Assembly: GCA_965214485.1 (NCBI GenBank)
Contig: CBDCBW010000010.1
Span: 130,594-194,593 of the forward strand
Source: Rhodothermales bacterium
Lineage (GTDB): Bacteria; Bacteroidota; Rhodothermia; Rhodothermales; JANQRZ01
Direction of reading: 5' to 3'
Length of the DNA: 64,000 bases
Shown: in pieces, positions 19,653 through 35,477 of the stretch
Position numbering within the stretch: position 1 is the stretch's first letter
How the letters are laid out: each line of letters opens with the position of its first letter
The notes under the pieces: generated by a model
Databases searched by the model: none
What the model saw: the letters and a program-made list of their open reading frames with translations, nothing else
Told to the model about the DNA's origin: nothing
Translations under genes and position numbers: made by a program

Positions 19653-19931
19653 ATGGCCCACATCGACGTAGTCCGCGCTCACGCCCTCGGCCTCGCCGGA
19701 GCCCGCCGGGCCGCCGAGGAGGTTGCCGCCGAGCTTCGGGACGAGCTCCCGTTCCGCACGCACTGGGAGGGCGATACGCTCGTGGCCCGCGGCGCAGGCT
19801 TCGACGCGCAGTTCGTGGCCGACGACGAGGCGGTGCGCGTGCTGGTCAGGCTCGGCCTCGTGCTCCGCCCGATGCGCCGCAAGATTCACGGCGAGATCGA
19901 AGCCTACCTCGACCGCTACATTCCGGCCTGA
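19653..19931 (+). CDS. Polyhydroxyalkanoic-acid-system-like small protein (family assignment tentative)
   Basis: 92 aa from the ATG at 19653: MAHIDVVRAHALGLAGARRAAEEVAAELRDELPFRTHWEGDTLVARGAGFDAQFVADDEAVRVLVRLGLVLRPMRRKIHGEIEAYLDRYIP. This resembles the small 'PHA system protein' family recalled from memory. Confidence 0.45.
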   Translation: MAHIDVVRAHALGLAGARRAAEEVAAELRDELPFRTHWEGDTLVARGAGFDAQFVADDEAVRVLVRLGLVLRPMRRKIHGEIEAYLDRYIPA

Positions 19932-20014
19932 GTCCGCCCCATTCCGGTCTGAGTCTGCCCCGCGCTGCTCAGCCTCTCTTCTCTCCCTTCTCTCCTCCAT
20001 CCCCCACGTCTCCG

Positions 20015-20692
20015 ATGCGCTCTCACGTCCTCCGCTTTCTCTACAACCGCGCCGTCGGGGGCCTCCCGGTCCTCGGCACGCCTGCCGAAACGGCGGGCCG
20101 CTTTCTCTCCGGCCCCGGCACGCTCGCCGAGCGCGCCGAGGAGATGAGCAAAACCCACGTCATGCTCTGCGCGAGCACCGGCTTCGTGCTCGGGCTGCCG
20201 GGCTTCCTGATGCTGCCGATCACGCTGCCGACCAACCTCGCGGGCGTGGCCCTCGTTCAGCTCCACCTCGCCGCCGCCACGGCCTTCATGGGCGGCCACG
20301 ACCCGCACGACAAGGCGGTGCGCGAGCGCGCCGTGGCGTGCCTGCTCGGGCGGGGCACCGAGGAGCCGACCGAGGAGGACGAGGCCGTCGAGGTGATCGA
20401 CCGCTCGGCGGTGAAGCTGGCCGAGCGCGGGATCCGGTTCCTCGCCGAGGGCGCGGTCGGGCTGGCGACGCGGGCCGGGCGCTGGGGGGCGACGAAGGTG
20501 GTGACCCGGCAGCTTCCGCGCCGGAGCCTCCCGCTCGTCGGCGGCGTGCTCGGGGGGGCGTCGGACGCCTACAGCGCGGGCAAAGTCGCCGAGGCCGCGC
20601 GCCGGGCTTTTCTCGATGTCGAGCCGCCGCTCTCCCTCGTCGCCGAGATCGAGACGTCCGAGATCGAGGCGTCGGGCGACGGGGCCGGCTGA
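20015..20692 (+). CDS. EcsC-family protein
   Basis: 225 aa. The stretch THVMLCASTGFVLGLPGFLMLPITLPTNLAGVALVQLHLAAATAFMGGHD resembles the EcsC family core. Confidence 0.5.
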   Translation: MRSHVLRFLYNRAVGGLPVLGTPAETAGRFLSGPGTLAERAEEMSKTHVMLCASTGFVLGLPGFLMLPITLPTNLAGVALVQLHLAAATAFMGGHDPHDKAVRERAVACLLGRGTEEPTEEDEAVEVIDRSAVKLAERGIRFLAEGAVGLATRAGRWGATKVVTRQLPRRSLPLVGGVLGGASDAYSAGKVAEAARRAFLDVEPPLSLVAEIETSEIEASGDGAG

Positions 20693-20826
20693 GCGAGCGT
20701 CGGCGCTCTCTTTGGTGGGAGACCGGCGTATGTTCGCGGAGGGTGCTATTTTTAATCGGCAGTGGCAGCCCCGGGTTCAGTCCGCCGGGGAGTCTCCCGA
20801 TACCGCTGCCGACGCCCCGCCCCGCT

Positions 20827-22773
20827 ATGGCCGCATCCCCGCACCCCTTCGCGCAGCGCTCGGTGATCGAGCAGGCGCTCGTCAGCGTCTCGCACTTGCT
20901 GGTCTCCTCGAGCGAGGCCGACCTGCGCGAGGTGCTCCGCATTCTCGGCGAGGCGCTCGGCGCGGAGTGCGCTTACCTCGTCACCGTGCCCGACGAGAAC
21001 CACGCCCTGACCGAGGCCGCGACGCCGCTCGGCACGATGACTCGGTGGCACCGCGACGGGGCCTCGAGCGAGCAGTCCCTCTTCGACGGAGACCGCGACG
21101 CGAGCAGCCCGACGCTGCGGCTCCTCGCCAACGCGCAGCACCACCCGGGCCGAGACGTCCACGTCCAGACCGGCTCCGACGGGAGCGAGTCGGCGGGGGT
21201 TGCCATTCCGCTGCTCTCGAAGCAGGACCGGTTCGTCGGCTACCTCGGCATCGAGCACGCAGCGCTGCCGGACCAAGCCCTGCGCGAGCACGGCCGGGTG
21301 CTCTCCGTCTTCGGCGACCTCCTCTCGGGCTACCTCAGCCGCCGCGACGCCGAGCGGGCCCTCTCGGAGAGCGAGGAGCGCTGGCGCAAGTTCGTCGAGT
21401 TCAACCCCGAGCCGATCCTCATCACCACCGCCGACACGATCCTCTACGCCAACGAAGCCTGCATGCGCCTCCTCGGCATCGACGAGCCAGAGGCCCTCCA
21501 GGACTACGCGCTGCGCGACTTTCTCCCGGCCGACCAGGTCCACCTGATCGAGACGCAGCAGGCCATCGCCTCGGACCAGGCCCCCCTGGAGCACGACATC
21601 GTCCGGCTCGACGGCGAGGAGCGGGTCGTCGAGACCATCGCCGTGGCGGTGCGCTTCCAGGGCCTCGAGGCCGTGCAGATGGTGATGCGCGACCTCACCG
21701 ACCGCAAGCGCAGCCAGGAGCGCTACCGCACGTTCGTCCAGACGATCTCCGAGGGGGTCTGGCGCATCGACATCGCTAAGCCGGTCTCCGCCCTGGCCTT
21801 CCCCACGCTCCAGGCCGATCAGATGCTCGAGCACGGCTACCTCGCCGAGTGCAACACGATGATGACCCGGCTCCTCGGCGCTTCCCGCACCGAAGCCGTC
21901 GTCGGCAAGCCGCTCCGGACGCTGGTGCCGGCCCTCGGCAGGGGCATGGTCGAGACCTTCGTCGAGAACGGCTACCGGCTCCACAACCACGAGGTGTCGT
22001 TTCAAGGGGCAGGCCGGTCCCCGCGCCACTTCTCGCTCAACGCCGTCGGCCGGATCGAGCGGGGTGCGCTGGTCCGCATCTGGGGAAGCTGCGTCGAGGT
22101 CACCGAGCGCGTCGAGATGGAGCGCCGCATGGTGGCCGTGCTCGAGGAGCAGCAGGAGCGCATCGGGCGCGACCTGCACGACAGCGTGGGGCAGCTCCTG
22201 ACGGGGATCCGGATGCTGAGCGAGAACCTCGGGACGCGCCACTTCAGCCCTGGGGAGGAGGGCTACGCCGCCATGCAGAAGGTGACCACCTTCGCCGAGG
22301 ACGCCCTCCAGCGGGTGCGCGAAATCTGCCGGGGCCTGGTTCCGCCGCAGCTCTACCAGGAGGGCCTCGGGTCCGCGCTGCACGGGCTGTGCGCCACGCT
22401 CGATGTGCTCTCCGACGTCCGCTGCTCGTTCACCCAGCATGAAGAGACCGAGGTCGAGAGCTACGAGACGCAGCTCCAGCTCTACCGGATCGCGCAGGAG
22501 GCCGCCAACAACGCCCTCAAGCACGCCGAGCCGGAGCACATCTGGCTTCGCCTCACGCGCGAGAACGGGTTCGTCACCCTCGAAGTAGAGGACGACGGAC
22601 GAGGCTTCGAGGAGGAGCAGCACACCGGACGCTCCCTGGGGCTGTACAGCATGCGCCGCCGGGCGAGCAGCATCCGGGCTACGCTCGTCATCGACTCCGA
22701 GATCGAGGTTGGGACGCTGGTAAAGGTGGTGCTTCCGGCGAAGGAACCGGCGCAGGAGACGGCCGAGGTGTAG
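20827..22773 (+). CDS. Sensor histidine kinase (GAF-PAS-PAS-HisKA_3-HATPase), NarL-type partner
   Basis: Start at the ATG at 20827 (MAASPHPFAQRS). It has two PAS-like segments ending in MRDLTDRKRSQE, the H-box HDSVGQLLTGI, and the ATPase N-box IAQEAANNALKHA with DDGRGF. The 368 codons upstream in the track ORF overlap the EcsC gene out of frame. Confidence 0.8.
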   Translation: MAASPHPFAQRSVIEQALVSVSHLLVSSSEADLREVLRILGEALGAECAYLVTVPDENHALTEAATPLGTMTRWHRDGASSEQSLFDGDRDASSPTLRLLANAQHHPGRDVHVQTGSDGSESAGVAIPLLSKQDRFVGYLGIEHAALPDQALREHGRVLSVFGDLLSGYLSRRDAERALSESEERWRKFVEFNPEPILITTADTILYANEACMRLLGIDEPEALQDYALRDFLPADQVHLIETQQAIASDQAPLEHDIVRLDGEERVVETIAVAVRFQGLEAVQMVMRDLTDRKRSQERYRTFVQTISEGVWRIDIAKPVSALAFPTLQADQMLEHGYLAECNTMMTRLLGASRTEAVVGKPLRTLVPALGRGMVETFVENGYRLHNHEVSFQGAGRSPRHFSLNAVGRIERGALVRIWGSCVEVTERVEMERRMVAVLEEQQERIGRDLHDSVGQLLTGIRMLSENLGTRHFSPGEEGYAAMQKVTTFAEDALQRVREICRGLVPPQLYQEGLGSALHGLCATLDVLSDVRCSFTQHEETEVESYETQLQLYRIAQEAANNALKHAEPEHIWLRLTRENGFVTLEVEDDGRGFEEEQHTGRSLGLYSMRRRASSIRATLVIDSEIEVGTLVKVVLPAKEPAQETAEV

Positions 22774-22950: not shown

Positions 22951-23670
22951 ATGAACTCGAGCCCCTCTCCAGCCTCCCCGGACACTCCCGCCGCCTCGGC
23001 CCCGATCCGCGTCGTCGTCGTCGACGACCACCCGGCCATCCGCGAGGCCATCGCCGACACCATCCGCGCCCAGCCCGGACTCGAACTCTGCGGCGTCGCC
23101 GGCAGCGCCACCGACGCCTTCGACCTCGTGCGCGAGACCCAGCCCGACGTCGCCGTCATCGACATCTCGCTCGGCGACGCCCACGGCCTCGACCTGGTGC
23201 AGAACCTCCGCGCCCAGCACCGCTCGCTCGAGGTCGTCGTCTTCTCGATGTACGACGAGGAGGTCTACGCCGAGCGCGCCATCCGCGCCGGTGCCCGGGG
23301 CTACGTCATGAAGAGCGAGCCGACCCAGAGCGTCGCCGAGGCGATCCGGTGCGCGGCCTCGGGCGAGATCTACCTCAACCGCCGCGCCGCCAGCCGGATC
23401 CTGTCGAAGGTCGCCGCCGGGCACACCGGTGCCGGGCGCACCGGCGAGGCGGCGCCGGGGCTCGAGGACCTGACGGACCGGGAGATGGCGGTCTTCCAGA
23501 TGCTCGGGCAGGGTCGCCCGACCGAGGAGATCGCCGAGCGGCTGAACCTGAGCCGCAAGACGGTCGAGACCTACCGGCGGCGGGCGAAGGAGAAGCTGGG
23601 CTTCGAGACGGTGACCGAACTCCTCCAGTTCGCCATACGGTGGACCTACGCCCAGGGCAACGGCCCCTAG
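22951..23670 (+). CDS. NarL/LuxR-family response regulator, copy 1
   Basis: 239 aa with a REC domain (VVVVDDHPAIRE...DVAVIDISLGD...MKS) and a LuxR HTH (LTDREMAVFQMLGQGRPTEEIAERLNLSRKTVETYRRR). Confidence 0.85.
   Translation: MNSSPSPASPDTPAASAPIRVVVVDDHPAIREAIADTIRAQPGLELCGVAGSATDAFDLVRETQPDVAVIDISLGDAHGLDLVQNLRAQHRSLEVVVFSMYDEEVYAERAIRAGARGYVMKSEPTQSVAEAIRCAASGEIYLNRRAASRILSKVAAGHTGAGRTGEAAPGLEDLTDREMAVFQMLGQGRPTEEIAERLNLSRKTVETYRRRAKEKLGFETVTELLQFAIRWTYAQGNGP
23020..23643 (+). repeat. 624-bp block identical to 24370-24993
   Basis: Line-by-line comparison of the two regions shows no mismatch over the block (offset 1350 bp). It covers nearly the entire response-regulator coding sequence. Confidence 0.9.
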
Positions 23671-23781: not shown

Positions 23782-24303
23782 CTCGGAGCGGAGCGATGGC
23801 AGCGGAAGCGGGGGCCAGCCTGCGAGCAACGGTCTTCCGCTGTGGCAGTGCGGCGGGGCGGCTCTGCGGTCCTGGGCGTGAAGAACCCCTCGACTTCGGC
23901 CTACGGGACACGTCCTACGGCCCCCGCCCAGGATGACGGGACAAGGGGAGGCCATCGCGGCGCGCGGCTCCGTCTCCCGAGCCGGCACGCGGGCGAGGCG
24001 ACCGAGGCGCTTCCGACGCGATGACCGGTGAGTGTCCCGGAAAGGACCAGGGTGAGCTTGCCCCGGCACCGATCCCTCTTTTCGGCGCAGCGCGGGGGGT
24101 ACAGAAGCACTAGGCGGGATGCGCCCAAACTACCCCCTTGCATGTGCTAAAACTCAAGGGTTTCCTACCGCCCCAGCGGGTACTTTTAGATTGCCCTTCC
24201 TGCTGGTCCACGCCTCCGACCCTCTCCGCCTAACCGCCCCGGCTTCGTGTTCGCTTCCTTCTTCCCGGTCGCTGACCATGTGCCCCCCGAGGCCACCCGG
24301 ATC

Positions 24304-25029
24304 ATGCCCGTCCCTTCTCTCCATTCCGCCGCCACGGCCGCGAAGCGGGCCCCGATCCGCGTCATCGCCGTCGACGACCACCCGGCCATCCGCGAGGCCA
24401 TCGCCGACACCATCCGCGCCCAGCCCGGACTCGAACTCTGCGGCGTCGCCGGCAGCGCCACCGACGCCTTCGACCTCGTGCGCGAGACCCAGCCCGACGT
24501 CGCCGTCATCGACATCTCGCTCGGCGACGCCCACGGCCTCGACCTGGTGCAGAACCTCCGCGCCCAGCACCGCTCGCTCGAGGTCGTCGTCTTCTCGATG
24601 TACGACGAGGAGGTCTACGCCGAGCGCGCCATCCGCGCCGGTGCCCGGGGCTACGTCATGAAGAGCGAGCCGACCCAGAGCGTCGCCGAGGCGATCCGGT
24701 GCGCGGCCTCGGGCGAGATCTACCTCAACCGCCGCGCCGCCAGCCGGATCCTGTCGAAGGTCGCCGCCGGGCACACCGGTGCCGGGCGCACCGGCGAGGC
24801 GGCGCCGGGGCTCGAGGACCTGACGGACCGGGAGATGGCGGTCTTCCAGATGCTCGGGCAGGGTCGCCCGACCGAGGAGATCGCCGAGCGGCTGAACCTG
24901 AGCCGCAAGACGGTCGAGACCTACCGGCGGCGGGCGAAGGAGAAGCTGGGCTTCGAGACGGTGACCGAACTCCTCCAGTTCGCCATACGGTGGGAGCAGA
25001 GCCAGACCAGCCCGCGCTCGGACTCGTAG
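24304..25029 (+). CDS. NarL/LuxR-family response regulator, copy 2
   Basis: Identical to copy 1 except for the N-terminal about 25 aa and the last about 12 aa. Start chosen at the ATG at 24304 (MPVPSLHSAATAAKRAPIRVIAVDDH); the track ORF begins at the GTG at 24247. Confidence 0.8.
   Translation: MPVPSLHSAATAAKRAPIRVIAVDDHPAIREAIADTIRAQPGLELCGVAGSATDAFDLVRETQPDVAVIDISLGDAHGLDLVQNLRAQHRSLEVVVFSMYDEEVYAERAIRAGARGYVMKSEPTQSVAEAIRCAASGEIYLNRRAASRILSKVAAGHTGAGRTGEAAPGLEDLTDREMAVFQMLGQGRPTEEIAERLNLSRKTVETYRRRAKEKLGFETVTELLQFAIRWEQSQTSPRSDS
24370..24993 (+). repeat. Second copy of the 624-bp identical block
   Basis: See 23020-23643. Confidence 0.9.
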
Positions 25030-25103: not shown

Positions 25104-26231
25104 CTAGTCGGTCTCGGGGAGGTAGAGCTCTGCCGTCCGGCGCGCGGCGGAGTAGGCCCCGTACCGCAGCCCGCCTGCGACGCCGTCCTGCGCCAGCACG
25201 TTGAGCCGCACCCGGTCCCAGTACGGCTCGACCTTCATGTGAGCCTGTTTCGGAAGCCGCTCCAGCAGGTCGTGCCCCAGCGTTCTCACGCGGTGGTCGC
25301 GGCGGATGTCGTCCCGGACGTGCTTCGGCAGCGGAGCCGCCAGGAGGTCAGCGGCGAGCAACAGGCCGAGCCGGAGGATGCGGCGGCTGCGCATCGCGCC
25401 CATCCGGTCGTAGACGGCGTGCCAGTCCAGGCCGGGGTAGGCGCGGACGAGCTCGGCGACGTCGCAGATGTACTTGAACCGGTCCCACCGATTCTTCAGG
25501 CCGTGGTAGCACAGCACCTGGAGGAGGTCCTCCGTGCCCAGCGTGCGCACGTCGCGCCCGGCGATGGGCACCGTCACCGAGCGCGCGAGGAGGGCGTCGA
25601 AGCTCTCCGAGTACCGGTAGCCCGGCGGCATTATGGCCGTGTGCACGTCGATGAAAGCCTGCGCTTCGCCGAGGCTGTGGATGCGCCGCCAGAACGTGTA
25701 TTGGCCGTTGAGGTAGAGATAGCTCGCCTTCCGAAACGGGGTCAGCGGCTTGGACCCGTAGCCTTCGCGGGCCAGCATCCGGTCGAGCCGGTCGAAGTCC
25801 TCGCGCCGGACGACCAGGTCGATGTCGACGAACGGGCGGGCGGCGATGCCTCCGTAGACGCTCTGCGCAAGCACGGCCCCTTTGACGGCGAGCGTCGGGA
25901 AGGCCTCGCGCTCGAACACCTCGGACAGGCGCCCGAGCTCCTGCATCAGGATGAGGCTGTGGGCCGAGCGCGCCCCGACGACCCCGCGCAGCCACGTCAT
26001 GTGCGGCTCCGAGAGGAGGGCGTCGTCCATCTCGCGCAGGTGGCAGTAGAGGAGCGGCTGCACGCCGTGGTAGCCGGCCAGCGTGACGAGGTAGCCCCAC
26101 TGCAGATCGTCGTCGCGGAGGTGGTGCGCGACCTGTTCGGCATGGGACGGCTCGAGCTCCGTCCGGCAGCAGAGCCGCATGATGTTGTATTCGGGGCGGG
26201 AGCCGGCCTCGTCGGGGTGAATCGTAGCCAT
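25104..26231 (-). CDS. Uncharacterised nucleotidyltransferase family protein (NTP_transf_5-like)
   Basis: Start at the ATG at 26231 (MATIHPDEAGS...). The protein has PFVDIDLVVRREDFDRLDRMLAREGY and the overall helical N-domain typical of the PF14907-type family that often accompanies lasso-peptide/HPr-kinase-like clusters. Confidence 0.6.
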   Translation of the reverse strand: MATIHPDEAGSRPEYNIMRLCCRTELEPSHAEQVAHHLRDDDLQWGYLVTLAGYHGVQPLLYCHLREMDDALLSEPHMTWLRGVVGARSAHSLILMQELGRLSEVFEREAFPTLAVKGAVLAQSVYGGIAARPFVDIDLVVRREDFDRLDRMLAREGYGSKPLTPFRKASYLYLNGQYTFWRRIHSLGEAQAFIDVHTAIMPPGYRYSESFDALLARSVTVPIAGRDVRTLGTEDLLQVLCYHGLKNRWDRFKYICDVAELVRAYPGLDWHAVYDRMGAMRSRRILRLGLLLAADLLAAPLPKHVRDDIRRDHRVRTLGHDLLERLPKQAHMKVEPYWDRVRLNVLAQDGVAGGLRYGAYSAARRTAELYLPETD

Positions 26232-26240
26232 CAATCTCTC

Positions 26241-26292
26241 GTCATCAGAAGGGTGCCTCTTGTCCTCGGACCTCGTGTCATCAGAAGGGTGC
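26241..26292 (-). promoter_or_regulatory. Two 16-bp direct repeats in the promoter/5' region of the nucleotidyltransferase gene
   Basis: gtcatcagaagggtgc occurs at 26241-26256 and 26277-26292 (36-bp spacing). An AT-rich stretch follows, with TTGACG on the minus strand (attattgacgtgc) just upstream. Confidence 0.45.
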
Positions 26293-26461
26293 ACGTCAAT
26301 AATTCAGAACACACCGGTAGGCCTGACCGGGGCACAGCCGCCGCCGGAGGCATCGCGCGGCGAGCAGAGAGGCTGAGCGCGAGAAGGGGGTTCCGGCAGC
26401 GGGCGTCGGGGCAGTAAGATATCGCATGTTGTCCAACTTGCCTAAGGCTCCGCCAGCGCGC

Positions 26462-27598
26462 TCAGGGCTCGGACGGCCTCCGTGCAGCCTGAGCCGATGG
26501 CTTCAGCACCAGCTCGGCGATGACCGCCCGGTGGTCGGAAACCAGGTCGGGGTCCACGCGCGCGCGCCGGACCACCCAGTCGTCGCTGGCGAGCACGTAG
26601 TCGATGCGGACGAGGGGTAGGCCCGCCGGGAACGTCCCGCCCCAGCCCGTCCCGGCCTCGTCGAAGGCGTCCCGAAAGCCGTGCGCGAGGTGGGTGTAGG
26701 CCCAGTTCCGCGGCGTGCTGTTGAAGTCGCCGCACACGAGGAACGGGTGGGGCTCCGCGTCGAGCATCGCGCGTAGCTGGCGGGCCTGCTCGGCCCGGAC
26801 CTCGAAGTCGCGGCCGTAGGCGTGGAAGGCATCGAGCCAGGCGCGCGGCGAGAACCGCTGGTCCTCCCGCCGCCACGGGCGCTGGCTGCTGAACGAGTGG
26901 AGGTGCACGTTGTAGACCATGATGGTCCGGCCCTGCCACCGGTAGGCGCGGCGCGTGATGCCGCCGGAGCTCCACAGCCCCTCCGGGGGGTTGCCCCGCA
27001 CCAACTCGCTTCGCCCCACCGCCTCGATGCGCGAGAAGAGGGGCCGCGAGAACATGAAGTCCTTGCCGCCATCGGGCCGCGACATCTCGTAGGCTTTGTC
27101 CTTGAGCAGCGGGCCGAGCAGCGGCGCGCCCCAGGTCACGCCGGTGTCGCGGAGCAGGCGGATCGAGAACTCCTGGAGCGCGATGAGGTGGGGGCGGTCG
27201 CGCGCCAGCACGTTGGCGAGGACGTGCTGCTTGCCGCCGCCGTCCTTGCCTGCGTTGAACGTCATCACCGTGAGGCCGGGCGCGTCGGCGGCGGCGGTCG
27301 CGGGGTCAGCGCTGGCGTTCAGCTCCGGCATGAGCACGGTGGCGAGGCAGAGGAGGAGGTGAAGCGCAGCGAGAGCCCAGCGCCGCTTCACGATGAGACC
27401 GACGGCTACGAGCGCCGCCGCGACGAGAACAAGCGTGCCGAAGATGGCGACGACCTGGAGGCCCCAGAGCTGCTCCGGCGGCACGAAGGGGGCCGCGTTC
27501 GCCGCCGCGAGGAGGCCGACGAGCGCGGCGTCTGCCCCCCAGAGAAGCCATCGCCCCCTCCGGGACGGCGGGCGCTTCGGAACCGCTTCGGTCGTCAT
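26462..27598 (-). CDS. Membrane-anchored endonuclease/exonuclease/phosphatase (EEP) family protein
   Basis: 378 aa with about three N-terminal TM helices. The EEP motifs are VMTFN, IALQEF, VYNVHL, CGDFNSTP, RIDYVL and SDHRAV. The start overlaps the upstream stop (ATGA at 27595-27598). Confidence 0.75.
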   Translation of the reverse strand: MTTEAVPKRPPSRRGRWLLWGADAALVGLLAAANAAPFVPPEQLWGLQVVAIFGTLVLVAAALVAVGLIVKRRWALAALHLLLCLATVLMPELNASADPATAAADAPGLTVMTFNAGKDGGGKQHVLANVLARDRPHLIALQEFSIRLLRDTGVTWGAPLLGPLLKDKAYEMSRPDGGKDFMFSRPLFSRIEAVGRSELVRGNPPEGLWSSGGITRRAYRWQGRTIMVYNVHLHSFSSQRPWRREDQRFSPRAWLDAFHAYGRDFEVRAEQARQLRAMLDAEPHPFLVCGDFNSTPRNWAYTHLAHGFRDAFDEAGTGWGGTFPAGLPLVRIDYVLASDDWVVRRARVDPDLVSDHRAVIAELVLKPSAQAARRPSEP

Positions 27599-28503
27599 GC
27601 CGGAATGTAGAACCGCATCAGGACGAGGACGAAGGCGGCCACGTAGAGCGCCGGGGCGTACCGGAAGGTCTCACGCTCGCACTGCATGATCCCCATCGCC
27701 ACGATGAGCCACGCGAAGTACAGGATCGGCGCGACGACGTAGGTCGAGAAGACGAACGCCAGCAGCACCGCGTCGCGCCACTTCGCCAGCCAGAACCTCC
27801 TCGGGAGCAGAAAGGCCACGGCCACGGCTCCCTCGATGGCGAGCGTCCACCACGTCATCAGCGCGGCGAGCCAGCGCGCCTCCGCCGCCAACGGCACCGC
27901 GAGCGCCCCCGCCGGATCGCCGAAGGCGGTGTAGACCACCCGCTCAAGGCGCGCCCGCGCCAGCACCCCGGCGTCGAGCCCGACGAGGTGCTCGGCGAAC
28001 AGCCCGAAGCGCGTGTCCTGAAGCAGGAAGTAGTTGAAGAACGCGCCGCTCACGTAGTCCGGCGAGAGCACCTTCCACAGCGTGGCGAACAGGAAGCACA
28101 GCCCGATGAGCACGCGGGCGTTCACCCGCACCGCCTTCAACGGCTCCACCGCGAGGAGCGAGACGCCGAGGCCGAGGCACCAGTAGAGCTTGAGGAAGTC
28201 GTGGTTGTTCTGCTGGTGCCACGTCTGCCAATAGGCGAGCACGAGCACCCCCACGAGCCCGAGCCACAGCAGCGGGTTGCGCATGAGCGGCCGGAGCACG
28301 AGCGCCGTCACCGTGAGCGTGGTGAGGCCGAGCTGGATGTGCCACGCCGGCTCGTGCAGCGAGAGCACGATCATCACGAGCGTCATCGCCGCCCCGAGCT
28401 CGAACAGGTCGGCCCCGAGGAGCGCATCGACGGGCCGGCGGGCGAGCGTACGCAGCCGGCTCGGTGGTCGAGGGTGCACAGGGGAGAGGGGGGCGGAGTC
28501 CAT
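27595..28503 (-). CDS. Polytopic membrane protein, HTTM / vitamin-K-dependent gamma-carboxylase-like membrane domain
   Basis: 302 aa with about 8 hydrophobic helices. WHQQNNHDFLKLYW resembles the WNNHSYLYGLL motif of GGCX. LWKVLSPDYVSGAFF resembles GVKKLDADWVEGYSM around the catalytic Lys. MTWWTLAIEGAVAVAFLLP resembles VHWGGLLLDLSAGFLLF. The comparison is from a recalled human GGCX sequence, not a search. Confidence 0.45.
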   Translation of the reverse strand: MDSAPLSPVHPRPPSRLRTLARRPVDALLGADLFELGAAMTLVMIVLSLHEPAWHIQLGLTTLTVTALVLRPLMRNPLLWLGLVGVLVLAYWQTWHQQNNHDFLKLYWCLGLGVSLLAVEPLKAVRVNARVLIGLCFLFATLWKVLSPDYVSGAFFNYFLLQDTRFGLFAEHLVGLDAGVLARARLERVVYTAFGDPAGALAVPLAAEARWLAALMTWWTLAIEGAVAVAFLLPRRFWLAKWRDAVLLAFVFSTYVVAPILYFAWLIVAMGIMQCERETFRYAPALYVAAFVLVLMRFYIPA

Positions 28504-28509
28504 AGGGTG

Positions 28510-29118
28510 CTACTCGGCAGCGCTCGGTTGCACCGTCGCCTCGGCGATGCGCTCCCAGCGAAGCAGCTCGGCGTCGGGGTCGAAGACGGGCCTCCAGACC
28601 TCGACGCGCGCGCCCTCGACCTCGGCGTCGGTCGGGAGGCCGTTGTAGGGCGCGCGGCGCGGGTCGAAGGCCAGGTGGCTGGGGTAGAGACCGGAGGCAT
28701 CGACCGACGCCGAGTCCGCCCACGCCGCCTGCCACGCCTCGGAGGTGCGGAAGTAGTGCTGGAGGAAGTCCGGCAGCGACGGCCAGACCGTGCGGTACGT
28801 CGAGGCGTCGTAGACCCGCCAGTCCTGCGCGGCGACGGTGCGCGCCGCCGCCTCGAGGCGGGCCTGCGTCGGCTGCGTGTAGACCAGGCGCGTCTTGACC
28901 CCGAAGCGGGGCTCGACGACGAGCGCCTCGCCCCGGTCCGTCAGCACGTAGGCGCGGAGGGCGCGGGCCCCGGGCACGTCCACGGTCGAGAACATCCCGA
29001 AGCCGCCGCCGGCCCACTGTGTCTGGCCGTGGACCTCGACGTTGTAGCGCTGCAGCGCCACGCCGGCGATCAGCACGATGGGGGCGAGTCCGTAGGCGAG
29101 CCGCTGCGGGAGTCTCAT
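28510..29118 (-). CDS. Single-pass membrane/exported protein, resembles the start of the extracytoplasmic domain of HTTM/VKGC-family proteins
   Basis: Start at the ATG at 29118 (MRLPQRLAYGLAPIVLIAGVALQ), overlapping the ABC exporter stop (ATGA). GGGFGMFSTVDVPGARALRAYVLTDRGE resembles the GYSWDMMVHS...VKITYRDGRTGE segment that follows the membrane domain in GGCX. Otherwise there is no recognisable motif. Confidence 0.35.
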   Translation of the reverse strand: MRLPQRLAYGLAPIVLIAGVALQRYNVEVHGQTQWAGGGFGMFSTVDVPGARALRAYVLTDRGEALVVEPRFGVKTRLVYTQPTQARLEAAARTVAAQDWRVYDASTYRTVWPSLPDFLQHYFRTSEAWQAAWADSASVDASGLYPSHLAFDPRRAPYNGLPTDAEVEGARVEVWRPVFDPDAELLRWERIAEATVQPSAAE

Positions 29119-31025
29119 CGCGGTACGGCGGTGGGGTCCGGAGCAGGGGTCACCTCGGCGGTCTCGTCCCCGGCCTGCCCGTCGCCGACGATGGGCTCCG
29201 CCGTGCCGTCCTCCTGCCGCATCTGCGCCCGCCACGACGCCGCGTACCGCCCGCCGAGGGCAATCAGCTCGTCGTGCGTGCCGGTCTCGACGACCTGCCC
29301 GGCGTCCATGACGTGGATAATGTCGGCCTGCATCGCAGTCGTGAAGCGGTGGGTGATGAGGAGCGCCGTCCGGCCCTCGACCATCCGGCGGAACCGCGCC
29401 AGCCACTCGTTCTCGGCCCACGAGTCCATCGAGCTCGTCGGCTCGTCGAGCACGACGATCGGGGCTTGGCGGAAGAAGGCCCGCGCGAGCGCGACCCGCT
29501 GCCACTCGCCGCCGCTCAGCTCGCTCCCCGTCTCGAACCACCGCCCGAGGACCGAGTCGTACTTCCGGGGCAGCTTCTCGATGACCTCGTGCGCCCCCCC
29601 GCCGACGGCTGCCGCCTGCACGGCGTCGAGATCGACCTCGCGGCCGAGGTCGCCGAGGCGGATGTTGTCCTCGGCCGTCATCTGGTACTTCATCGGGACC
29701 TGGAACATCACCGAGACGTGGCGGCGCAGGTCGGTCTGCGCGAACTCCCGCAGGTCGATGCCGTCGACCGTGATGCGCCCGGCGGTCGGGTCATAGAACC
29801 GGCAGAGGAGCTTGATGAAGGTGCTCTTCCCCGCCCCGTTCTCGCCGACGATGGCGACGATCTTGCCCGACGGGATCGTGAGGTTGAAGCCTTCGAGCGC
29901 CTTCCGCTCGAAACCGGGATAGCTGAACGAGACGTCCTCGAACCGGACGCCCTCGTCGATCCGGTCGGGAAATGGGGTGGGCGTTGCCGGCTCGGCGAGG
30001 CCGTTCTCCTGGTCGAGGAAGTCGAAGAGGTGTTCGAGGAAGAGCGTGTTGGTGTAGACCTGTCCCATGTTCTGGAGCAGCCCGCCGACGAGCGCCTGCC
30101 CCTGGTTGAACGCCTGGTAGAAGAGCGCGAGGTCCCCCAGCGTGGCCGCGCCGCGCGTCGCCCGGAGCACGACCCACAGCATCGCCCCGCCGGTGGCAAT
30201 GAGGCCCATGAAGGTGGCGAAGATGCGCGCGACGACCTGGTTCTTGAGCAGCTTCAGGCGCTCCTCCCGAAGGGCCCGGCGCAGCGCGAGGTAGCGGCTG
30301 CGGAAGTACTCGCCGGTGTTGTTGATCCGCACCTCGGCCGCCGACGCATCGAAGGTCACCATCAGGTCGAAGTACTGCGCGAGGCGGCGGCGGGCCGTCG
30401 AGGCCTTCCACCACGCATGGTACTTCTTGTTGTGACGGACGACGACGAAGAACGCCGGCAGCGTGCTGACGATGAGCACGAGGGGCAGCCACAGGCTGTA
30501 GCTCAGCAGGATCGCCGAGATCGAGAGCAGCGTCACGGTCGCGCTGAGCAGCCCGCCGATGTTGCCGAGGAGCTGCAGCACCCGGCTGTTGGCCTGCGAG
30601 TTGACCTGCTCGAGCTTGTCGTGGTAGTCCGCCGACTCGTAGAAGCCGAAGTCCACCTCGGTCGCTTTCTCGTGGACGAGGGCCTTGACTCGGTCCCCGA
30701 CGAGCTCCGCCTGCGCGGTCGAGACCCACTCGTTGATCCCGCCGAGGACGCGCTGCAGAATCATGACCCCGCCCATCAGCGCCGCCGGAGCGATCACCAC
30801 CGCCAGCGCAGCCTCGCCCGCGACCGCCGCCGCGAGGCTATCGACGAGCCACTTCGTGAGGTAGACCACCGCCGCCGGCAGCGTCCCCTGCACGGCCAGG
30901 AGGAGGAACCACACCACGGTCCACCGGCTCGCCGCCGACCAGATCAGCCGGAGCGCCATCCCCACGTAGGACGCCCGCAGCCGGAGGTCGTCGGCCTTGT
31001 GCCGCCACGTCTGCGTTGCCGTCAT
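29115..31025 (-). CDS. ABC exporter, fused permease + ATPase (lasso-peptide D-type transporter)
   Basis: 636 aa with a six-helix TMD. The NBD has Walker A GENGAGKSTF, signature LSGGEWQRV and Walker B IVVLDEPTS. It sits inside the lasso operon. Confidence 0.85.
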   Translation of the reverse strand: MTATQTWRHKADDLRLRASYVGMALRLIWSAASRWTVVWFLLLAVQGTLPAAVVYLTKWLVDSLAAAVAGEAALAVVIAPAALMGGVMILQRVLGGINEWVSTAQAELVGDRVKALVHEKATEVDFGFYESADYHDKLEQVNSQANSRVLQLLGNIGGLLSATVTLLSISAILLSYSLWLPLVLIVSTLPAFFVVVRHNKKYHAWWKASTARRRLAQYFDLMVTFDASAAEVRINNTGEYFRSRYLALRRALREERLKLLKNQVVARIFATFMGLIATGGAMLWVVLRATRGAATLGDLALFYQAFNQGQALVGGLLQNMGQVYTNTLFLEHLFDFLDQENGLAEPATPTPFPDRIDEGVRFEDVSFSYPGFERKALEGFNLTIPSGKIVAIVGENGAGKSTFIKLLCRFYDPTAGRITVDGIDLREFAQTDLRRHVSVMFQVPMKYQMTAEDNIRLGDLGREVDLDAVQAAAVGGGAHEVIEKLPRKYDSVLGRWFETGSELSGGEWQRVALARAFFRQAPIVVLDEPTSSMDSWAENEWLARFRRMVEGRTALLITHRFTTAMQADIIHVMDAGQVVETGTHDELIALGGRYAASWRAQMRQEDGTAEPIVGDGQAGDETAEVTPAPDPTAVPR

Positions 31026-31053: not shown

Positions 31054-31962
31054 CTAGCTGTGTGTGGGGACCGCATCGAGGTCTGCCTCGACCAGAGCGA
31101 AGATGTCGGGCAGGGCATCGAGAGACATGATACGCTCCAGAAGCGCCACCGGCGTGTGCTTGGCGAGCTGGGCGCACTGCTTGAAGTGCTCGGAGACGTA
31201 CTCGGGGGCGGTGATCCAGTTCGTCGAGTGCGTGTGGGCGACGAGGTGCATCGGCACCTCCTGCGTGCCGAGCTGCGTGACCCGGTTCGCCTCCGAGGTC
31301 TGCCGCCGCAGCACGTAGAGCTTCGACAGAGGTATCGACCGCACGTCCTCCCCCTTTAGAAGGCGCAGCCGCTTGGGCGAAATCTCGGTGACGAGCGGCA
31401 GGCTTTCGTGGTCCTCGACGAGCCGCTCGGCGGAGTTCGGGCGGAGGCGGACCTGTTTGATGCCCGGCGGGACGCGCGTCGGCTCGGTCTCCGTGCCGGG
31501 GAGCACCACCATCACGTCGTCCGTGATGAGCTCGTAGCCGTTCTGGCAGAAGTACTCGGCGAGGGTCGACTTGCCCCACCCGGAGTTGCCCAAAAACGCG
31601 ACCGCCCGCTCGCCGTCCGACACCGCCGAGCCGTGCAGCACGAGGAGGTGGCGCTGCCTGAGCGCCGCCGCGAGCAGCGCGCCCTGCACGAAGCTGCGGA
31701 GGAGGTCCTCCGAGATCGGCTTCAGCGTGTCGTAGGTGACGACCCTGCCCGCGTTGAGGTGGAAGAGGAGGTCGAGGTCCCACTCGTCTTCCTTGATGTG
31801 CCCGGAGACCACGTCCCCGTAGCGCGCGTCGGCAGCGCTCTTGCGCACGCGGAGGTTGCCTTTTTGGATCGTGACGTCGGGCGGACCGTCGTCGCCGGGT
31901 GCGAAGCCGGAGAGCTCGATGTCGGAGTGGATGGAGAGTCCGAAAGCCTTGTGGCGATGCAT
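31054..31962 (-). CDS. HPr-kinase-C-terminal-domain-like Ser/Thr kinase (lasso-peptide kinase type)
   Basis: Start at the ATG at 31962 (MHRHKAFGLSIHSDIEL). LHGSAVSDGERAVAFLGNSGWGKSTLA is the P-loop context seen in HprK-related kinases of paeninodin-type lasso clusters. Confidence 0.65.
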   Translation of the reverse strand: MHRHKAFGLSIHSDIELSGFAPGDDGPPDVTIQKGNLRVRKSAADARYGDVVSGHIKEDEWDLDLLFHLNAGRVVTYDTLKPISEDLLRSFVQGALLAAALRQRHLLVLHGSAVSDGERAVAFLGNSGWGKSTLAEYFCQNGYELITDDVMVVLPGTETEPTRVPPGIKQVRLRPNSAERLVEDHESLPLVTEISPKRLRLLKGEDVRSIPLSKLYVLRRQTSEANRVTQLGTQEVPMHLVAHTHSTNWITAPEYVSEHFKQCAQLAKHTPVALLERIMSLDALPDIFALVEADLDAVPTHS

Positions 31963-32102: not shown

Positions 32103-32288
32103 CTACGGATCGATCATGCACGTTTCCTGGTTGACGGTCGGGCACTGGTCGACCGAGTTGAGTCCTTCCTCGATCACGTTGCCGTCCAGGTCGAACGACT
32201 GATCGCCCGTGAAGGGGTCGCCCAGCGTCGCCGTGATCTCCGCCACATCACCGTAAGCGGTGAGTTGAGGTGCGATATAGGTCTTCAT
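32103..32288 (-). CDS. Lasso-peptide precursor (A), 61 aa
   Basis: MKTYIAPQLTAYGDVAEITA|TLGDPFTGDQSFDLDGNVIEEGLNSVDQCPTVNQETCMIDP. The leader fits the lasso motif YxxPxLx3Gx5Tx exactly (Y4, P7, L9, G13, T19). Asp sits at core position 9. The gene lies between the cyclase and the kinase. The ATG at 32288 is internal to the 102-aa track ORF. Confidence 0.7.
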   Translation of the reverse strand: MKTYIAPQLTAYGDVAEITATLGDPFTGDQSFDLDGNVIEEGLNSVDQCPTVNQETCMIDP

Positions 32289-32490: not shown

Positions 32491-34587
32491 CTAGACCGGC
32501 ATCTCCCCACCTTCCGGTTTCGTGAGCGAGGGGGTACTCTCCGCCGTGTCCACGAATCTCTTCTTTAGCCAGAAAGACAGGGTAGCCACACGGGCGAGCT
32601 GGGCCTGTTCGATGTTGGAAACGTCTTTCCCCCCGCGGTAGAGGCTATCGACCTCGGCTTCGTCCACGTAGGGGCGGAGCGCCCCGAGGTCCGTGATGTG
32701 TTCGTCGAGGAGGCCGCGGTCTTGCTCGTAGAGGCCGCGCTCGAAGTTGGGAGCGAGCCACGCCTTGCCCACGCGCCACTGCACTTTCTTCGGCAGGACG
32801 CCCTCGAGCGCGCGGCGCAGGATGGACCGCGTCCACCCGTCTTTCAGGCTCTGCCCGGGCGGGAGCGCGAGGCAGAACTCGACGAGCCGTTTGTCGAAGA
32901 AGGGGTGACGGATTTCGATGCGGTGTGCTGCGCTGGCGTGGGTGGTGAGCTCGAGCGCCGTTTGGATGCGGGAGCCGTTGAGCAACTGGCGCTGCACGTC
33001 GCGCACCGTCGTTAGCCGAGGCTTCTGGACCTCGAAGGCCTGCAGGCGCTCGGCGACCCCGATGCGTTCGGCAAAGGCGGGGTTCAGCAGCGGCAGGAGC
33101 GGCTCGGGGCGGCGCTCGGCCTTGGGGCCGCTGCGCCAGGCGTCGCGGGCGCGCTGCAAAGCCAGCGGTTGCATCAGCCAGCGCCGGTAGCGCCGGAACA
33201 GCTCGGCGCGCTCAACGCCGAAGAGCCGGTGCGCCGCCGAGGCTTCGCGGACGAACTGCCAGCGCTTGCCCTGCTCGGCGAGACGCTGAAGCCGGGCCAG
33301 CCCGAACCGCTGGAACGCCGTGTTGAGGTTGGCGAAGCTGTCCTCGAAGTTGTGGCGCTGCTCGGTGCTCTGGAACTGCCGCGCCGCAGCCTTGCTCTCG
33401 TGGGCGAACGTCTCCCAGTCCCCAGCCTCCGCTAGCTCCTTGAGATAGAGCAGCCCGTGCCCGACGACGTTGTCCCCGTCGAGGCCATCGAGGAGCACGC
33501 GGACGCCCGCCTTGCGAGCGGCAGCCTTCGCGGCCCACACGAGATGCTGGTTGCCGCTGGCGAGGCCGTCGTCGAGGTAGGTGTACACCTCGTCCAAATT
33601 GGAGAGCGGCCCGAGCTGGTCCCCTCGCACGAAGTGCGGGATGAAATCGCCTTGCTCTAGCACCGCGTCGATGAACGGGCGCTCGTCGCACGTCGCGACG
33701 TCCTCGTAGACGAGCGAGACCGTGTGGAGCGGCTTCCCCTCTTTCTCCAAGAGCCGCGCTGCCACAGCCGTGATCGACGACGAGTCCATCCCCCCACTCA
33801 GTTCAGAGCCGACGGGGAACGCGCTGCGGAGGCGGGCGCGGACGGCCTCGGTGAACAGCTCCCGGAAGCGCGCCTCGTACTCGGCGTCGGAGGCGTCGGG
33901 TGGCACATCGGCCGCCGGGGCCAGCGTGTAGTAGCGCCAGCGCCGCAGCCCGTCCGGGGAGACGGTGAGCGCGTGCGAGGCCGGGAGGCGGAGGACCTCT
34001 TCGTAGATCGTGTTCTCCGGGTCCTCGCGCATGGTCGCGAGGAAATCGGCGAGGCGGACCTCGTTGAGCCGCTCCGGCACCTCGGGTACGGCGAGCAGGG
34101 CTTTGATCTCCGTCCCGCAGGCGAAGTGGCTCCCCTCCCGGTAGTGGTAGTAGAAGGGTCGGATGCCGAAGTGATCGCGCGCGCAGAACAGCCGCTGCGC
34201 CGGGCCGTCCCAAATGGCAAAGGCGAAATCCCCGATGAGATGATCGAGGCAGCCCTCGCCCCACGCCGCGTAGGCGGCCAGAATCAGGTTGCTGTCGGTG
34301 ACGGGCTCCGCCTGGTCGCCGAGCCGCAGCCGGGCGAGCAGCGCGTCCCGGTTGTCGATCCGGGCATCGGCGGTGATGGCGAGCCCCGCCTCGGTCGCCA
34401 ACGGCAGCGCTTCGTGCAGCGATTCCGGCGTGGTGTGGAGCATCCGGTGCCCCAGCCCGATCGGCCCCTCGGCCCACACGCCCGCGCCGTCAGGGCCGCA
34501 GTGCGCCACGGCGTCGCCCATGCGGCGCAGCGCGTCCCGGTCCACGCCGTGACCGTCGAGTCGGTATAGCCCGGTGAGTGCGCTCAC
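32491..34587 (-). CDS. Lasso-peptide cyclase (asparagine-synthetase-like, C protein)
   Basis: Start at the GTG at 34587 (VSALTGLYRLDGHGVD), overlapping the B2 stop (GTGA). There is no N-terminal Cys nucleophile. It has the PP-loop SELSGGMDSS and is 698 aa. The 121 upstream codons of the track ORF overlap B2 out of frame. Confidence 0.8.
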   Translation of the reverse strand: MSALTGLYRLDGHGVDRDALRRMGDAVAHCGPDGAGVWAEGPIGLGHRMLHTTPESLHEALPLATEAGLAITADARIDNRDALLARLRLGDQAEPVTDSNLILAAYAAWGEGCLDHLIGDFAFAIWDGPAQRLFCARDHFGIRPFYYHYREGSHFACGTEIKALLAVPEVPERLNEVRLADFLATMREDPENTIYEEVLRLPASHALTVSPDGLRRWRYYTLAPAADVPPDASDAEYEARFRELFTEAVRARLRSAFPVGSELSGGMDSSSITAVAARLLEKEGKPLHTVSLVYEDVATCDERPFIDAVLEQGDFIPHFVRGDQLGPLSNLDEVYTYLDDGLASGNQHLVWAAKAAARKAGVRVLLDGLDGDNVVGHGLLYLKELAEAGDWETFAHESKAAARQFQSTEQRHNFEDSFANLNTAFQRFGLARLQRLAEQGKRWQFVREASAAHRLFGVERAELFRRYRRWLMQPLALQRARDAWRSGPKAERRPEPLLPLLNPAFAERIGVAERLQAFEVQKPRLTTVRDVQRQLLNGSRIQTALELTTHASAAHRIEIRHPFFDKRLVEFCLALPPGQSLKDGWTRSILRRALEGVLPKKVQWRVGKAWLAPNFERGLYEQDRGLLDEHITDLGALRPYVDEAEVDSLYRGGKDVSNIEQAQLARVATLSFWLKKRFVDTAESTPSLTKPEGGEMPV

Positions 34588-35045
34588 GCGGCGTCCGGGT
34601 GGACCGGGCTCAGCGGCGTGTACCGGACCTGCGACAGCCCTCCCCCGATGACGACGTAGCCGTCGCGCTCGAGCCATGCATGCGCCAGGAGTTTGCGACC
34701 GTCCTTGCTGACGCCGAGGTGAAGCGAGGTTTCGTAGCCGCCCCGCCGCAGCATCCGCTGCGCGACGAGCGCCTGCGTCAGGCACGGCTTGTCGCCCAGC
34801 GTCCGTCGTCCCACCGCCTCCACGGCGGCGACGACGCGCTGCCGGAAGGCTGCCCCCTCTTGGATAGTGACAGGAGCTACCTCTCTTCGCCCTGAACTCG
34901 TTAGACCTGAGCCTGCCAGACGCTGCACCGTGCGATAGGGCAGCACCCACAACCCCACCCGCACCGCCGCTACCAGCGCAAGCGCGTGCAGCAGGAGCAT
35001 CTTGTCCTCCCCGGACCGGTCTAGGAATTTACGAAGGGCTCCCAT
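34584..35045 (-). CDS. Lasso-peptide leader peptidase (B2, transglutaminase-like Cys protease)
   Basis: 153 aa. N-terminal LRKFLDRSGEDKMLLLHALALVAAVRVGLWVLPYRTV, catalytic Cys context KPCLTQALVAQRMLRRGG and His context LLAHAWLERDG are all typical of lasso B2 proteins. Confidence 0.8.
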   Translation of the reverse strand: MGALRKFLDRSGEDKMLLLHALALVAAVRVGLWVLPYRTVQRLAGSGLTSSGRREVAPVTIQEGAAFRQRVVAAVEAVGRRTLGDKPCLTQALVAQRMLRRGGYETSLHLGVSKDGRKLLAHAWLERDGYVVIGGGLSQVRYTPLSPVHPDAA

Positions 35046-35319
35046 CCGTGATCTCGATGAGCTGACGCTGCTCCATCTCGTGCAAAAACGCGAGGAGGTC
35101 TTCCTTCAGCTTACTCTCCTTCACATCGTACTCCTGGAGCAAGGCGTCCATGATGCGTTCCACCGAACGCGGTTTCCGCACGAGGTCGAAGATGCGGGCT
35201 CCTAGCTCGTTCAGGCCGTAATAGCGCCCCGAGTTAGGGTCCAGCACGACGGCCTCTCCACCGAGATCAGCAGCCGTCAAGCCCGGCGTCACTACAACAG
35301 TCGATTGCTCTGTCATCAT
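35029..35319 (-). CDS. PqqD-family RiPP recognition element (lasso B1)
   Basis: GEAVVLDPNSGRYYGLNELGARIFDLV...ERIMDALLQEYDV is the PqqD/RRE pattern. ATG at 35319, with an alternative TTG at 35331. It overlaps the B2 start by 17 nt. Confidence 0.75.
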   Translation of the reverse strand: MMTEQSTVVVTPGLTAADLGGEAVVLDPNSGRYYGLNELGARIFDLVRKPRSVERIMDALLQEYDVKESKLKEDLLAFLHEMEQRQLIEITDGSPS

Positions 35320-35477
35320 GAGCAGGTTCAAGGTGAGTTACCTCCGAAGGGATTTAAGGGCACAGTATAGAGCGCGTCCGACTGAAGTGCCTACGCCCGC
35401 CCGAGATTCTACCGAGCAACGTGCCGTTTTGGTGCCAGCACATCCTGTGCCGTGAGCCTGCCAAGCACCGAGAGTTC

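Follow-up and report, generated by a model that had tools for sequence, protein, structure and literature searches.

A split membrane-protein pair in a Rhodothermales lasso-peptide cluster, probably a remote relative of gamma-glutamyl carboxylase

Two adjacent genes for membrane proteins in a lasso-peptide cluster of a Rhodothermales bacterium are the subject of this analysis. The stretch of DNA analysed, called the window throughout, covers 64,000 nt of assembly GCA_965214485.1 (contig CBDCBW010000010.1, positions 130,594-194,593 of the forward strand); on its minus strand the cluster carries open reading frames (ORFs) for a 302-aa polytopic protein, hereafter poly (27595-28503), and a 202-aa single-pass protein, hereafter partner (28510-29118). 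We conclude that the two proteins are probably the halves of a split, periplasmic enzyme of the gamma-glutamyl carboxylase (GGCX) kind, invisible to Pfam, which has been recruited to tailor the exported lasso peptide. In profile comparisons the similarity of the pair to GGCX exceeds chance only when both halves are taken together. A previous sequence-only reading of the window had proposed such a pair within an operon for a peptide made by the ribosome and modified after translation (RiPP), and both ORFs exist as it described them.

Similarity of the joined pair to GGCX

The poly and partner families were concatenated locus by locus into a joined profile and compared by hhalign with profiles of the HTTM family, for which bacterial sequences came from plasmids (five, found by tblastn) and from metagenomes (79 collected, the scan having given 80 close relatives from a single subfamily); the human GGCX reference sequence was confirmed against the PDB. 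Joined in the GGCX order, poly and then partner, the pair scored 50.3 against a mixed human and bacterial HTTM profile (P=2e-5, probability 77%), in one local run of 213 columns that extends from GGCX 152 to 396 and crosses the junction. Column-shuffled profiles scored 16.7 ± 3.0 and at most 25.4 (z ~11), and the reversed profile scored 18.9. When the families were joined in the genomic order, partner and then poly, the score was 20.7 (P=0.13), in agreement with the proposal that the halves of a GGCX/HTTM relative, which we find to be a very remote one, are split and encoded in swapped order. Three other HTTM profiles gave P=0.008, 0.022 and 0.087 with the joined pair, the alignment being co-linear across the junction each time; the global mode of hhalign (-glob) was uninformative. 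Taken singly, poly aligned at 51-153 with GGCX 111-226, or at 130-180 with GGCX 204-249, and partner aligned over its transmembrane (TM) helix and W-GGGFG motif with GGCX 362-396 (P=0.008-0.05; z=2.8 and 3.8 in shuffled-column controls). Of partner, only the TM helix and W-GGFG segment aligned, with P=0.02 and a shuffle z of 3.8. A larger HTTM profile, biased towards one subfamily by the addition of the metagenome sequences, gave P=0.38 for poly and P=0.07 for partner.

These alignments place poly N100, H101, L104, A140, K144, D149, Y150, G153, W218, E224, F250 and F263 on GGCX N159, H160, L163, A214, K218, D222, W223, G226, W257, D263, F286 and F299, respectively, and partner Q23, W35 and F40 on GGCX Q374, W390 and Y395, a placement that rests on alignments significant only for the joined pair with one HTTM profile (P=0.008-0.38 with the others). 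In 40 homologs of poly, N100, H101, W143, K144, W218, E224, F250 and F263 are invariant; across 148 cluster representatives at 50% identity N100 and H101 still do not vary, and conservation of K144 is at least 90%. The motifs quoted by the sequence-only reading are present and fall on the best-conserved positions of both families. The invariant residues of partner are W35, G37-G39, M42-T45 and D47. In GGCX, N159, H160 and Y395 hold the carboxylate of the substrate Glu, K218 adjoins vitamin K and F299 stacks on CO2, and alanine at N159, H160, W223, F299 or Y395 impairs activity (PMC12647623). Residues invariant in the family coincide with the catalytically important N159, H160, K218, W223, F299 and Y395. 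The three motifs of poly that had been matched to GGCX from the sequence alone were reproduced by the profile alignments and fall on invariant residues. For partner, the pairing of LRAYVLTDRGE with VKITYRDGRTGE held, whereas the pairing of its Gly-rich loop with GYSWDMM did not, the algorithm setting W35-GGGFG against W390-TNGLYG, about four residues upstream.

The blocks shared with GGCX (PF05090 and PF22777; structures 9BUM, 9L54 and 9WF3) follow one another in the same order in the joined pair: in poly, (D/N)NHxYL, R..I......A..K-L-x-P/A-D-(W/Y)-x-x-G, W...(D/E), F and GxF; in partner, a TM helix in which a Gln is conserved and then W-x-x-G-x-(Y/F)-G. Unlike GGCX, a protein of 758 aa, the pair amounts to ~500 aa in total and is split between two genes in reverse order; it has neither the large lumenal domain nor the propeptide exosite, does not conserve the FR..fG motif of TM1 or the DKT motif, and is invisible to Pfam, HMMER and Foldseek at standard thresholds.

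The AlphaFold2 (AF2) model of poly has ~9 TM helices and a mean confidence (pLDDT) of 91. Partner has a TM helix at its N-terminus, with the conserved Q23, then the loop W35-x-GGGFGMFST-x-D, which is invariant, and an alpha/beta domain in the periplasm; its model (pLDDT 87.5) drops below 50 only at residues 37-42. In this model of the isolated protein the low-confidence segment is the invariant GGGFGM loop itself (window 28993-29010), and docking of the loop into poly would order it, which would account for its disorder in isolation. The positive-inside rule and the AF2 helices put the active-site residues at the periplasmic face, so that the predicted active site would be extracytoplasmic, as it is in GGCX and as had been proposed. 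To judge from the alignments, poly is probably the counterpart of the GGCX/HTTM membrane core and partner probably that of the last TM helix, of the active-site loop that bears Y395 and of the beginning of the lumenal domain. In our view the pair is likely to be a true homolog of the HTTM/GGCX enzyme, remote and split in two.

Distribution of the pair and its Gla-like neighbours

The poly family contains 1,567 representatives at 50% identity (E<=1e-3), and its members are ~250-340 aa long in all 150 relatives listed. A pattern scan of GTDB found the family in at least 222 species of many phyla, with lineages that include Rhodothermales, Acidobacteriota, Gemmatimonadota, Myxococcota and Planctomycetota, as well as Thermodesulfobacteriota, Dadabacteria, Spirochaetia and Actinomycetota. 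Among the 80 GTDB loci kept for analysis (loci of every set carry the prefix L here), adjacency of the two genes could be evaluated in 75, from at least 10 phyla, with partner directly upstream of poly in 74 of them; the two genes form an obligate module. By context the 80 loci divide into four lasso clusters, all from Rhodothermales, 29 loci with DUF2092 and a gene we call x250, seven with Gla-like neighbours and 40 unclassified. All eight homologs sampled at >=55% identity lie in the same lasso cluster (L001, L014-L017, L174, L175 and the window), and all eight clusters retain the order ATP-binding cassette (ABC) exporter, partner, poly and a gene of the endonuclease/exonuclease/phosphatase (EEP) family. 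Median partner length is 204 aa in lasso-linked and 208 aa in Gla-linked pairs and ~113 aa in the DUF2092 context; a long-form subtype of partner is thus common to the lasso-linked and Gla-linked pairs.

In the 29 DUF2092 loci the pair belongs to a four-gene module of DUF2092 (LolA-like, periplasmic), x250, short-form partner and poly (for example L004:6176-8882 and L007:6336-9288). The x250 protein, a candidate substrate, has a signal anchor, a low-complexity region rich in G, R, S, Q and D, and a conserved C-terminus, LTC..T.V.V.G..YY.CG..WY...Y.GG.V.YVVV..PPGY. Directly upstream of the DUF2092 module in L004 (2045-6134) is an operon for a molybdopterin oxidoreductase, a 4Fe-4S protein and the quinone-interacting NrfD; this may be a quinol link or a coincidence.

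Gamma-carboxylation, which produces gamma-carboxyglutamate (Gla), is regarded as an animal modification, found in clotting factors, osteocalcin and conotoxins. In eight distinct loci from three phyla (Acidobacteriota, Myxococcota and Actinomycetota) none of them in the window, the pair adjoins a gene for a Gla-like protein. The Gla domain (PF00594) was judged by its gathering score of 27 bits and by an E-x-x-x-E-x-C core that, at the mature N-terminus, comes with a C-x4-C loop. The genes were found in Pyrinomonadaceae (L019:5949-6362; L020:5937-6305), in an Acidobacteriota metagenome-assembled genome (L079:8439-9560), in Nannocystis punicea FL3 (L034:5793-6266, which is NZ_CP114040.1 ~8057634-8058107, with the pair at ~8058108-8059603), in Kofleriaceae (L071:5249-6292) and in Ilumatobacteraceae (L002:9067-9378; L025:~6065-6355; L030:6052-6363). 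Like the substrates of GGCX, the encoded proteins have the Gla-like sequence at the N-terminus after a signal peptide: one or two repeats of the form (Y)xEECxx(E/G)GC(S/D)xEE(V/I)xE(L/W), such as ADFEEECVEEECDGEELEE...DECLEEECDVEEVREL and DYQEECLSEGCSDEEVKELW, are followed by diverse C-terminal domains, among them a Cys-rich domain of ~45 aa common to L019, L020 and L034. Scanning of 176 loci in six frames, by regular expression and by a hidden Markov model (HMM), found the motif nowhere else; it is always adjacent to the pair and on the pair's strand.

In Pfam, Gla was the top match of four among the five longer proteins and the second match of the remaining one (E 1.7e-4 to 0.04), in every case below the gathering score. 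When the N-terminus of the L079 protein was searched against the PDB with phmmer, all nine matches were Gla proteins (E 0.045-0.56), namely protein C, factor X, factor IX and TMG2, with alignments of the type ECLEEECDVEEVRE against ECIEEICDFEEAKE. The same database searched with one of the short Ilumatobacteraceae peptides gave no Gla match. A search of 28 'other' loci for acidic, Cys-containing neighbours with a signal peptide gave no convincing candidate; the single ORF that passed, of 471 aa, lacks the motif. A literature search of incomplete coverage turned up no account of Gla-domain proteins from bacteria. By analogy, a secreted Gla-like protein encoded beside a GGCX-like enzyme mirrors the vertebrate arrangement of enzyme and substrate.

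The lasso-peptide cluster and its precursors

The ORFs and their Pfam and NCBIfam matches delimit a lasso-peptide cluster on the minus strand at 25.1-35.3 kb, in which precursor, B1, B2 and C are all present; together with the synteny of the eight sampled clusters, this substantiates the RiPP setting that had been proposed for the pair. The gene order is B1, B2, cyclase, precursor, HPr-kinase-like gene, ABC exporter, partner, poly, EEP, NTP_transf_5. B1 (35029-35331; PF05402 3e-19, NF033536) is a PqqD-like leader-recognition protein, B2 (34584-35045; NF033537 8e-26, PF13471) a transglutaminase-like leader peptidase, and C (32491-34590, start approximate; NF033535 2.6e-228, PF00733) an asparagine-synthetase-like cyclase. 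The precursor of 61 aa (32103-32288; MKTYIAPQLTAYGDVAEITATL followed by GDPFTGDQSFDLDGNVIEEGLNSVDQCPTVNQETCMIDP) matches NF033528 lasso_cyano at 5e-8. The HPr-kinase-related protein (31054-31962; TIGR04352 5e-8, PF07475 1e-3), whose likely start is the Met of MHRHKAFGL and whose counterparts in homologous loci match ScmC, is likely to be a lasso-peptide kinase. The exporter (29115-31025; PF00005 1e-32 and MsbA-like NCBIfam matches) is a fused permease and ATPase. Downstream of poly are a membrane-anchored EEP-family protein with three N-terminal TM helices (26462-27598; PF03372 2e-20 and a weak VanJ match) and an NTP_transf_5 nucleotidyltransferase (25104-26294; PF14907 4e-52), the last conserved gene of the cluster and syntenic in L001, L014-L017, L174 and L175.

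The exporter stop overlaps the partner start (ATGA), 6 nt separate the partner stop from the poly start, and the poly stop overlaps the EEP start (ATGA), so that we read exporter, partner, poly and EEP as one translational unit. Among the loci sampled the EEP gene is confined to those linked to lasso genes. The catalytic domain of its product is predicted to be periplasmic, and the protein may strip, after export, the phosphate added by the HPr-kinase-like protein. The core genes of paeninodin-type lasso clusters (B1, B2, C, precursor, HPr-kinase-like kinase, ABC exporter and NTP_transf_5) are present here; the differences are the insertion of partner, poly and EEP between ABC exporter and NTP_transf_5, the long acidic tail and C-x7-C loop of the precursors, and a flanking Glycos_transf_4 gene in L001, L174 and L175, to which an ORF of 426 aa corresponds in the window.

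That ORF, encoding a polytopic protein at the 5' flank of the cluster (35478-36758, minus strand), occupies the same relative position as the Glycos_transf_4 gene, which in L001 also encodes 426 aa, and by this match of size and position it may belong to the cluster. On the other side of the cluster, the plus strand encodes two LuxR/GerE-type response regulators (22951-23670 and 24247-25029) with ~200 residues identical between them, which suggests that roughly 1.3 kb were duplicated in tandem not long ago; next to them is a PAS/HisKA_3 kinase gene (19723-22773). L001 and L175 have these kinase and regulator genes beside the cluster as well, and L174 has one regulator there. The pair of L002, a locus without lasso genes, is also preceded by a HisKA_3 kinase and a regulator.

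Fourteen homologous precursors from the eight clusters share the pattern TLG(D/N/A)PFTGDx(S/E)FD(L/V)DG...NS(V/I)(D/N)QCPT-x5-C. Their invariant side chains are D7, presumed to be the ring residue, D11, D13 and the two Cys of C-x7-C; E-x-C before the second Cys occurs in only about half of them. Sister clusters carry two to four precursor genes in tandem (L001:5346-6289; L174:3878-5451; L175:4336-4876). Their products differ in the C-terminal tail within a constant C-x7-C loop and share an invariant FD(L/V)DG(N/D), a segment that we take to resemble the calcium-binding DxDG loop. The EE and QET sites that had been pointed out in the window precursor are present there, whereas in the sister clusters they are not conserved. 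Glu as such is not conserved in the cores, and several cores are free of Glu though the pair is retained, as in two L001 precursors. Formation of Gla at EE and QET was rejected as the conserved reaction on the ground that sister precursors lack Glu, and the gamma-carboxylation of lasso-peptide Glu that had been suggested is unlikely in that role. Because of this lack of conserved Glu, the conserved target is more likely an invariant Asp.

Proposed reaction and its alternatives

The pair is not alone in combining a small protein with a polytopic one. A 2026 preprint predicts that adjacent DUF5819 and HTTM(-DCC) proteins mimic a whole GGCX; in its AlphaFold 3 models the TM helix of the DUF5819 protein fills the position of a GGCX helix, its soluble domain replaces the clamp, and the loop right after the TM helix touches the vitamin K pocket (10.64898/2026.08.19.745780). 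Our pair resembles these in that a single-pass protein of ~190-200 aa is encoded beside a polytopic one. It differs in that partner has no DUF5819 match, poly no HTTM match and neither a DCC domain; it represents a different and much larger unannotated family, with lasso and Gla-like contexts. Canonical bacterial HTTM proteins (~460 aa, GGCX-like) at L009:450-6774 and L010:2473-4341 have no Gla-like neighbours; a Chondrinema HTTM gene lies within a cluster for imelysin, a di-haem oxidoreductase and a TonB receptor, and a Paracoccus HTTM gene adjoins a DUF393 (DCC thiol oxidoreductase) gene. We know of no protein substrate that has been demonstrated for a bacterial HTTM protein.

SdpB is an HTTM protein, and models of the SdpA and SdpB families are included in the NCBIfam library. 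Neither window protein matches NCBIfam at E<=1, and the peptide classes differ; the likeness to SdpA/SdpB and to the HTTM proteins of linaridin clusters lies in a polytopic protein with a small partner, encoded beside the precursor of a ribosomal toxin, and in a role in its maturation. A literature search for HTTM proteins linked to lasso peptides found no reports. The claim that any link to RiPPs would be new went too far, however: linaridin clusters carry HTTM proteins such as CrdG with a presumed role in maturation (PMC9927463), and SdpA and SdpB, encoded by sdpABC of B. subtilis, are needed to process the toxin precursor SdpC (PMC6818787). A further precedent is MloH of the Streptomyces malonomycin pathway, described as a bacterial vitamin K-dependent carboxylase orthologous to GGCX (PMC12647623; 10.64898/2026.08.19.745780). 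As described there, MloH acts in bacterial natural-product biosynthesis and carboxylates an aspartyl residue, an example of a target Asp in place of Glu that parallels the invariant Asp of the lasso cores; unlike the pair, it is a single fused polypeptide, and its substrate is an intermediate of a polyketide synthase-non-ribosomal peptide synthetase, not a ribosomal peptide.

The explanation we favour, and hold with about as much doubt as belief, is that poly and partner form one bipartite inner-membrane enzyme acting on the lasso peptide after export, with carboxylation as its most likely chemistry. Poly would be the quinol-binding membrane core, with K144 as catalytic residue, N100 and H101 binding the carboxylate and F263 as the Phe that stacks on CO2. 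Partner would add the last TM helix, which poly lacks. Its WxGGGFGMFST loop, in the place of the Y395 loop of GGCX, would close the active site, and its periplasmic domain would serve as substrate clamp. After maturation and phosphorylation in the cytoplasm and export by the ABC protein, the peptide would be modified in the periplasm by the pair and by the EEP protein acting as phosphatase. Reduced menaquinone and O2 would yield a strong base, the base would deprotonate an acidic side chain in the Asp- and Glu-rich, disulfide-looped tail, and addition of CO2 would leave a malonate-type, metal-binding residue. We infer that the two proteins form a complex and depend on quinol; substrate and reaction are inferred likewise. 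That the pair tailors the lasso peptide seems to us rather probable. That its reaction is carboxylation is a more tentative proposal, to which we give somewhat less than even weight; if the pair is a carboxylase, an invariant Asp is the better target, and another base-dependent reaction or disulfide formation is possible.

To the lack of conserved Glu must be added further results that weigh against a GGCX-like carboxylase. A significant VKG_Carbox/HTTM match, whose absence the sequence-only reading had itself named as a refutation, was not found. Neither window protein matches Pfam or NCBIfam at E<=1; when 223 relatives (the 40 and 148 of poly and 35 of partner) and the family consensus sequences were scanned with Pfam at E<=10, none of either protein matched VKG_Carbox/HTTM (PF05090), the lumenal domain (PF22777) or DUF5819, and the SdpB and SdpA/B models were likewise unmatched by either protein, its relatives or consensus. 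Since no match reaches significance, the pair is not a VKG_Carbox/HTTM member by Pfam criteria. The recurrent weak signals in the 148 poly representatives were MauE (12 of 148, best E 0.0023) and DoxX_3 (4 of 148). Profile HMMs of the two families did not retrieve GGCX from PDB sequences, and a homolog search from human GGCX had vertebrate GGCX and nothing else among its best 120 matches, with no bridge to the pair. Foldseek against the PDB ranked GGCX (9wf3_A) best among the 50 matches listed for poly, with a TM-score of 0.42 (<=0.24 for the others listed) and a probability of 0.69 at a non-significant E=0.83, and found nothing for partner, GGCX included. Each half singly gives P=0.008-0.38 over all profiles, and the strong joined score hinges on the HTTM profile chosen. 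The Pfam Gla scores, 14.5-22.1 bits over two stretches in each protein, are below the cut-off, the sequences are biased in composition, and the three short Ilumatobacteraceae peptides (C-x3-C) have no Pfam Gla match. O2-dependent chemistry fits poorly with the presence of the family in lineages that we take to be largely anaerobic, and we saw no quinone-epoxide reductase in the flanks examined, where no systematic search for one was made.

How far do these points favour other explanations? The lack of any significant match from standard tools would be explained if the likeness to GGCX/HTTM were convergent or due to chance and the pair were an unrelated envelope module, for instance one handling lipids or lipoproteins with the LolA-like DUF2092 protein, behind which, together with a low-complexity gene, the pair lies in 29 of 80 loci; in addition, a significant hhalign result needs a constructed concatenation and one of four profiles. 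Against this, the joined score stands far above its shuffled controls, the junction is crossed with every profile tried, and at least nine invariant residues fall on identical or similar GGCX residues, six mutation-sensitive ones included. Chance would also have to accommodate the strict synteny in lasso clusters and Gla-like neighbours that the Pfam Gla model and PDB searches recognized independently, and we consider it unlikely. The MauE and DoxX_3 matches, as the sole recurrent Pfam signals, point instead to a thiol oxidoreductase that is linked to quinones and of the DoxX/MauE/HTTM-DCC type, which would form the C-x7-C disulfide of the lasso peptide and, elsewhere, act on the Cys pairs of neighbouring proteins. 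The two Cys are invariant in 14 of 14 precursors, Cys pairs occur in the Gla-like repeats (C-x4-C or C-x3-C) and in most x250 proteins (C...YYxCG), DCC/DUF393 thiol oxidoreductases are frequent fusion partners or neighbours of HTTM proteins, and the SdpAB-dependent toxin SDP contains a disulfide. The DoxX and MauE profile matches were, however, sporadic and sub-threshold, with none for the window protein or the consensus. Neither poly nor partner has a conserved Cys or a CxxC motif, what is invariant matches the carboxylation site of GGCX, with its N-H pair and CO2-stacking Phe, and several x250 homologs lack the Cys pair; a thiol oxidoreductase is thus improbable.

A third explanation starts from the position of the pair, directly after the ABC exporter and translationally coupled to it, and from the frequency with which small membrane proteins in RiPP clusters are immunity factors: poly and partner might be a non-catalytic accessory that shields the producer or aids the exporter. 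This we regard as very unlikely, given that ~95% of family members lack lasso genes, that the family keeps polar residues within the membrane and a Gly-rich loop without variation, as is typical of enzymes, and that it shows co-linear similarity to GGCX and an association with Gla-like proteins.

A GGCX-like enzyme is the reading we retain, and its widest form, a large family of split, menaquinone-dependent carboxylases whose substrates include the first bacterial Gla-domain-like proteins and a Rhodothermales lasso peptide, we advance as a possibility of which we are doubtful. If it is correct, a large unannotated bacterial enzyme family would have a minimal, two-subunit GGCX architecture with candidate natural substrates encoded next door, and bacterial Gla would be testable in a cultured strain, Nannocystis punicea FL3. 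For lasso peptides it would mean a new, CO2-using, extracytoplasmic tailoring reaction, the first periplasmic tailoring step known for this class and the first carboxylated RiPP, bearing Gla or beta-carboxy-Asp. The pair would also offer a compact bacterial model for the mechanism and evolution of GGCX, and would show how a split, permuted homolog can evade standard annotation.

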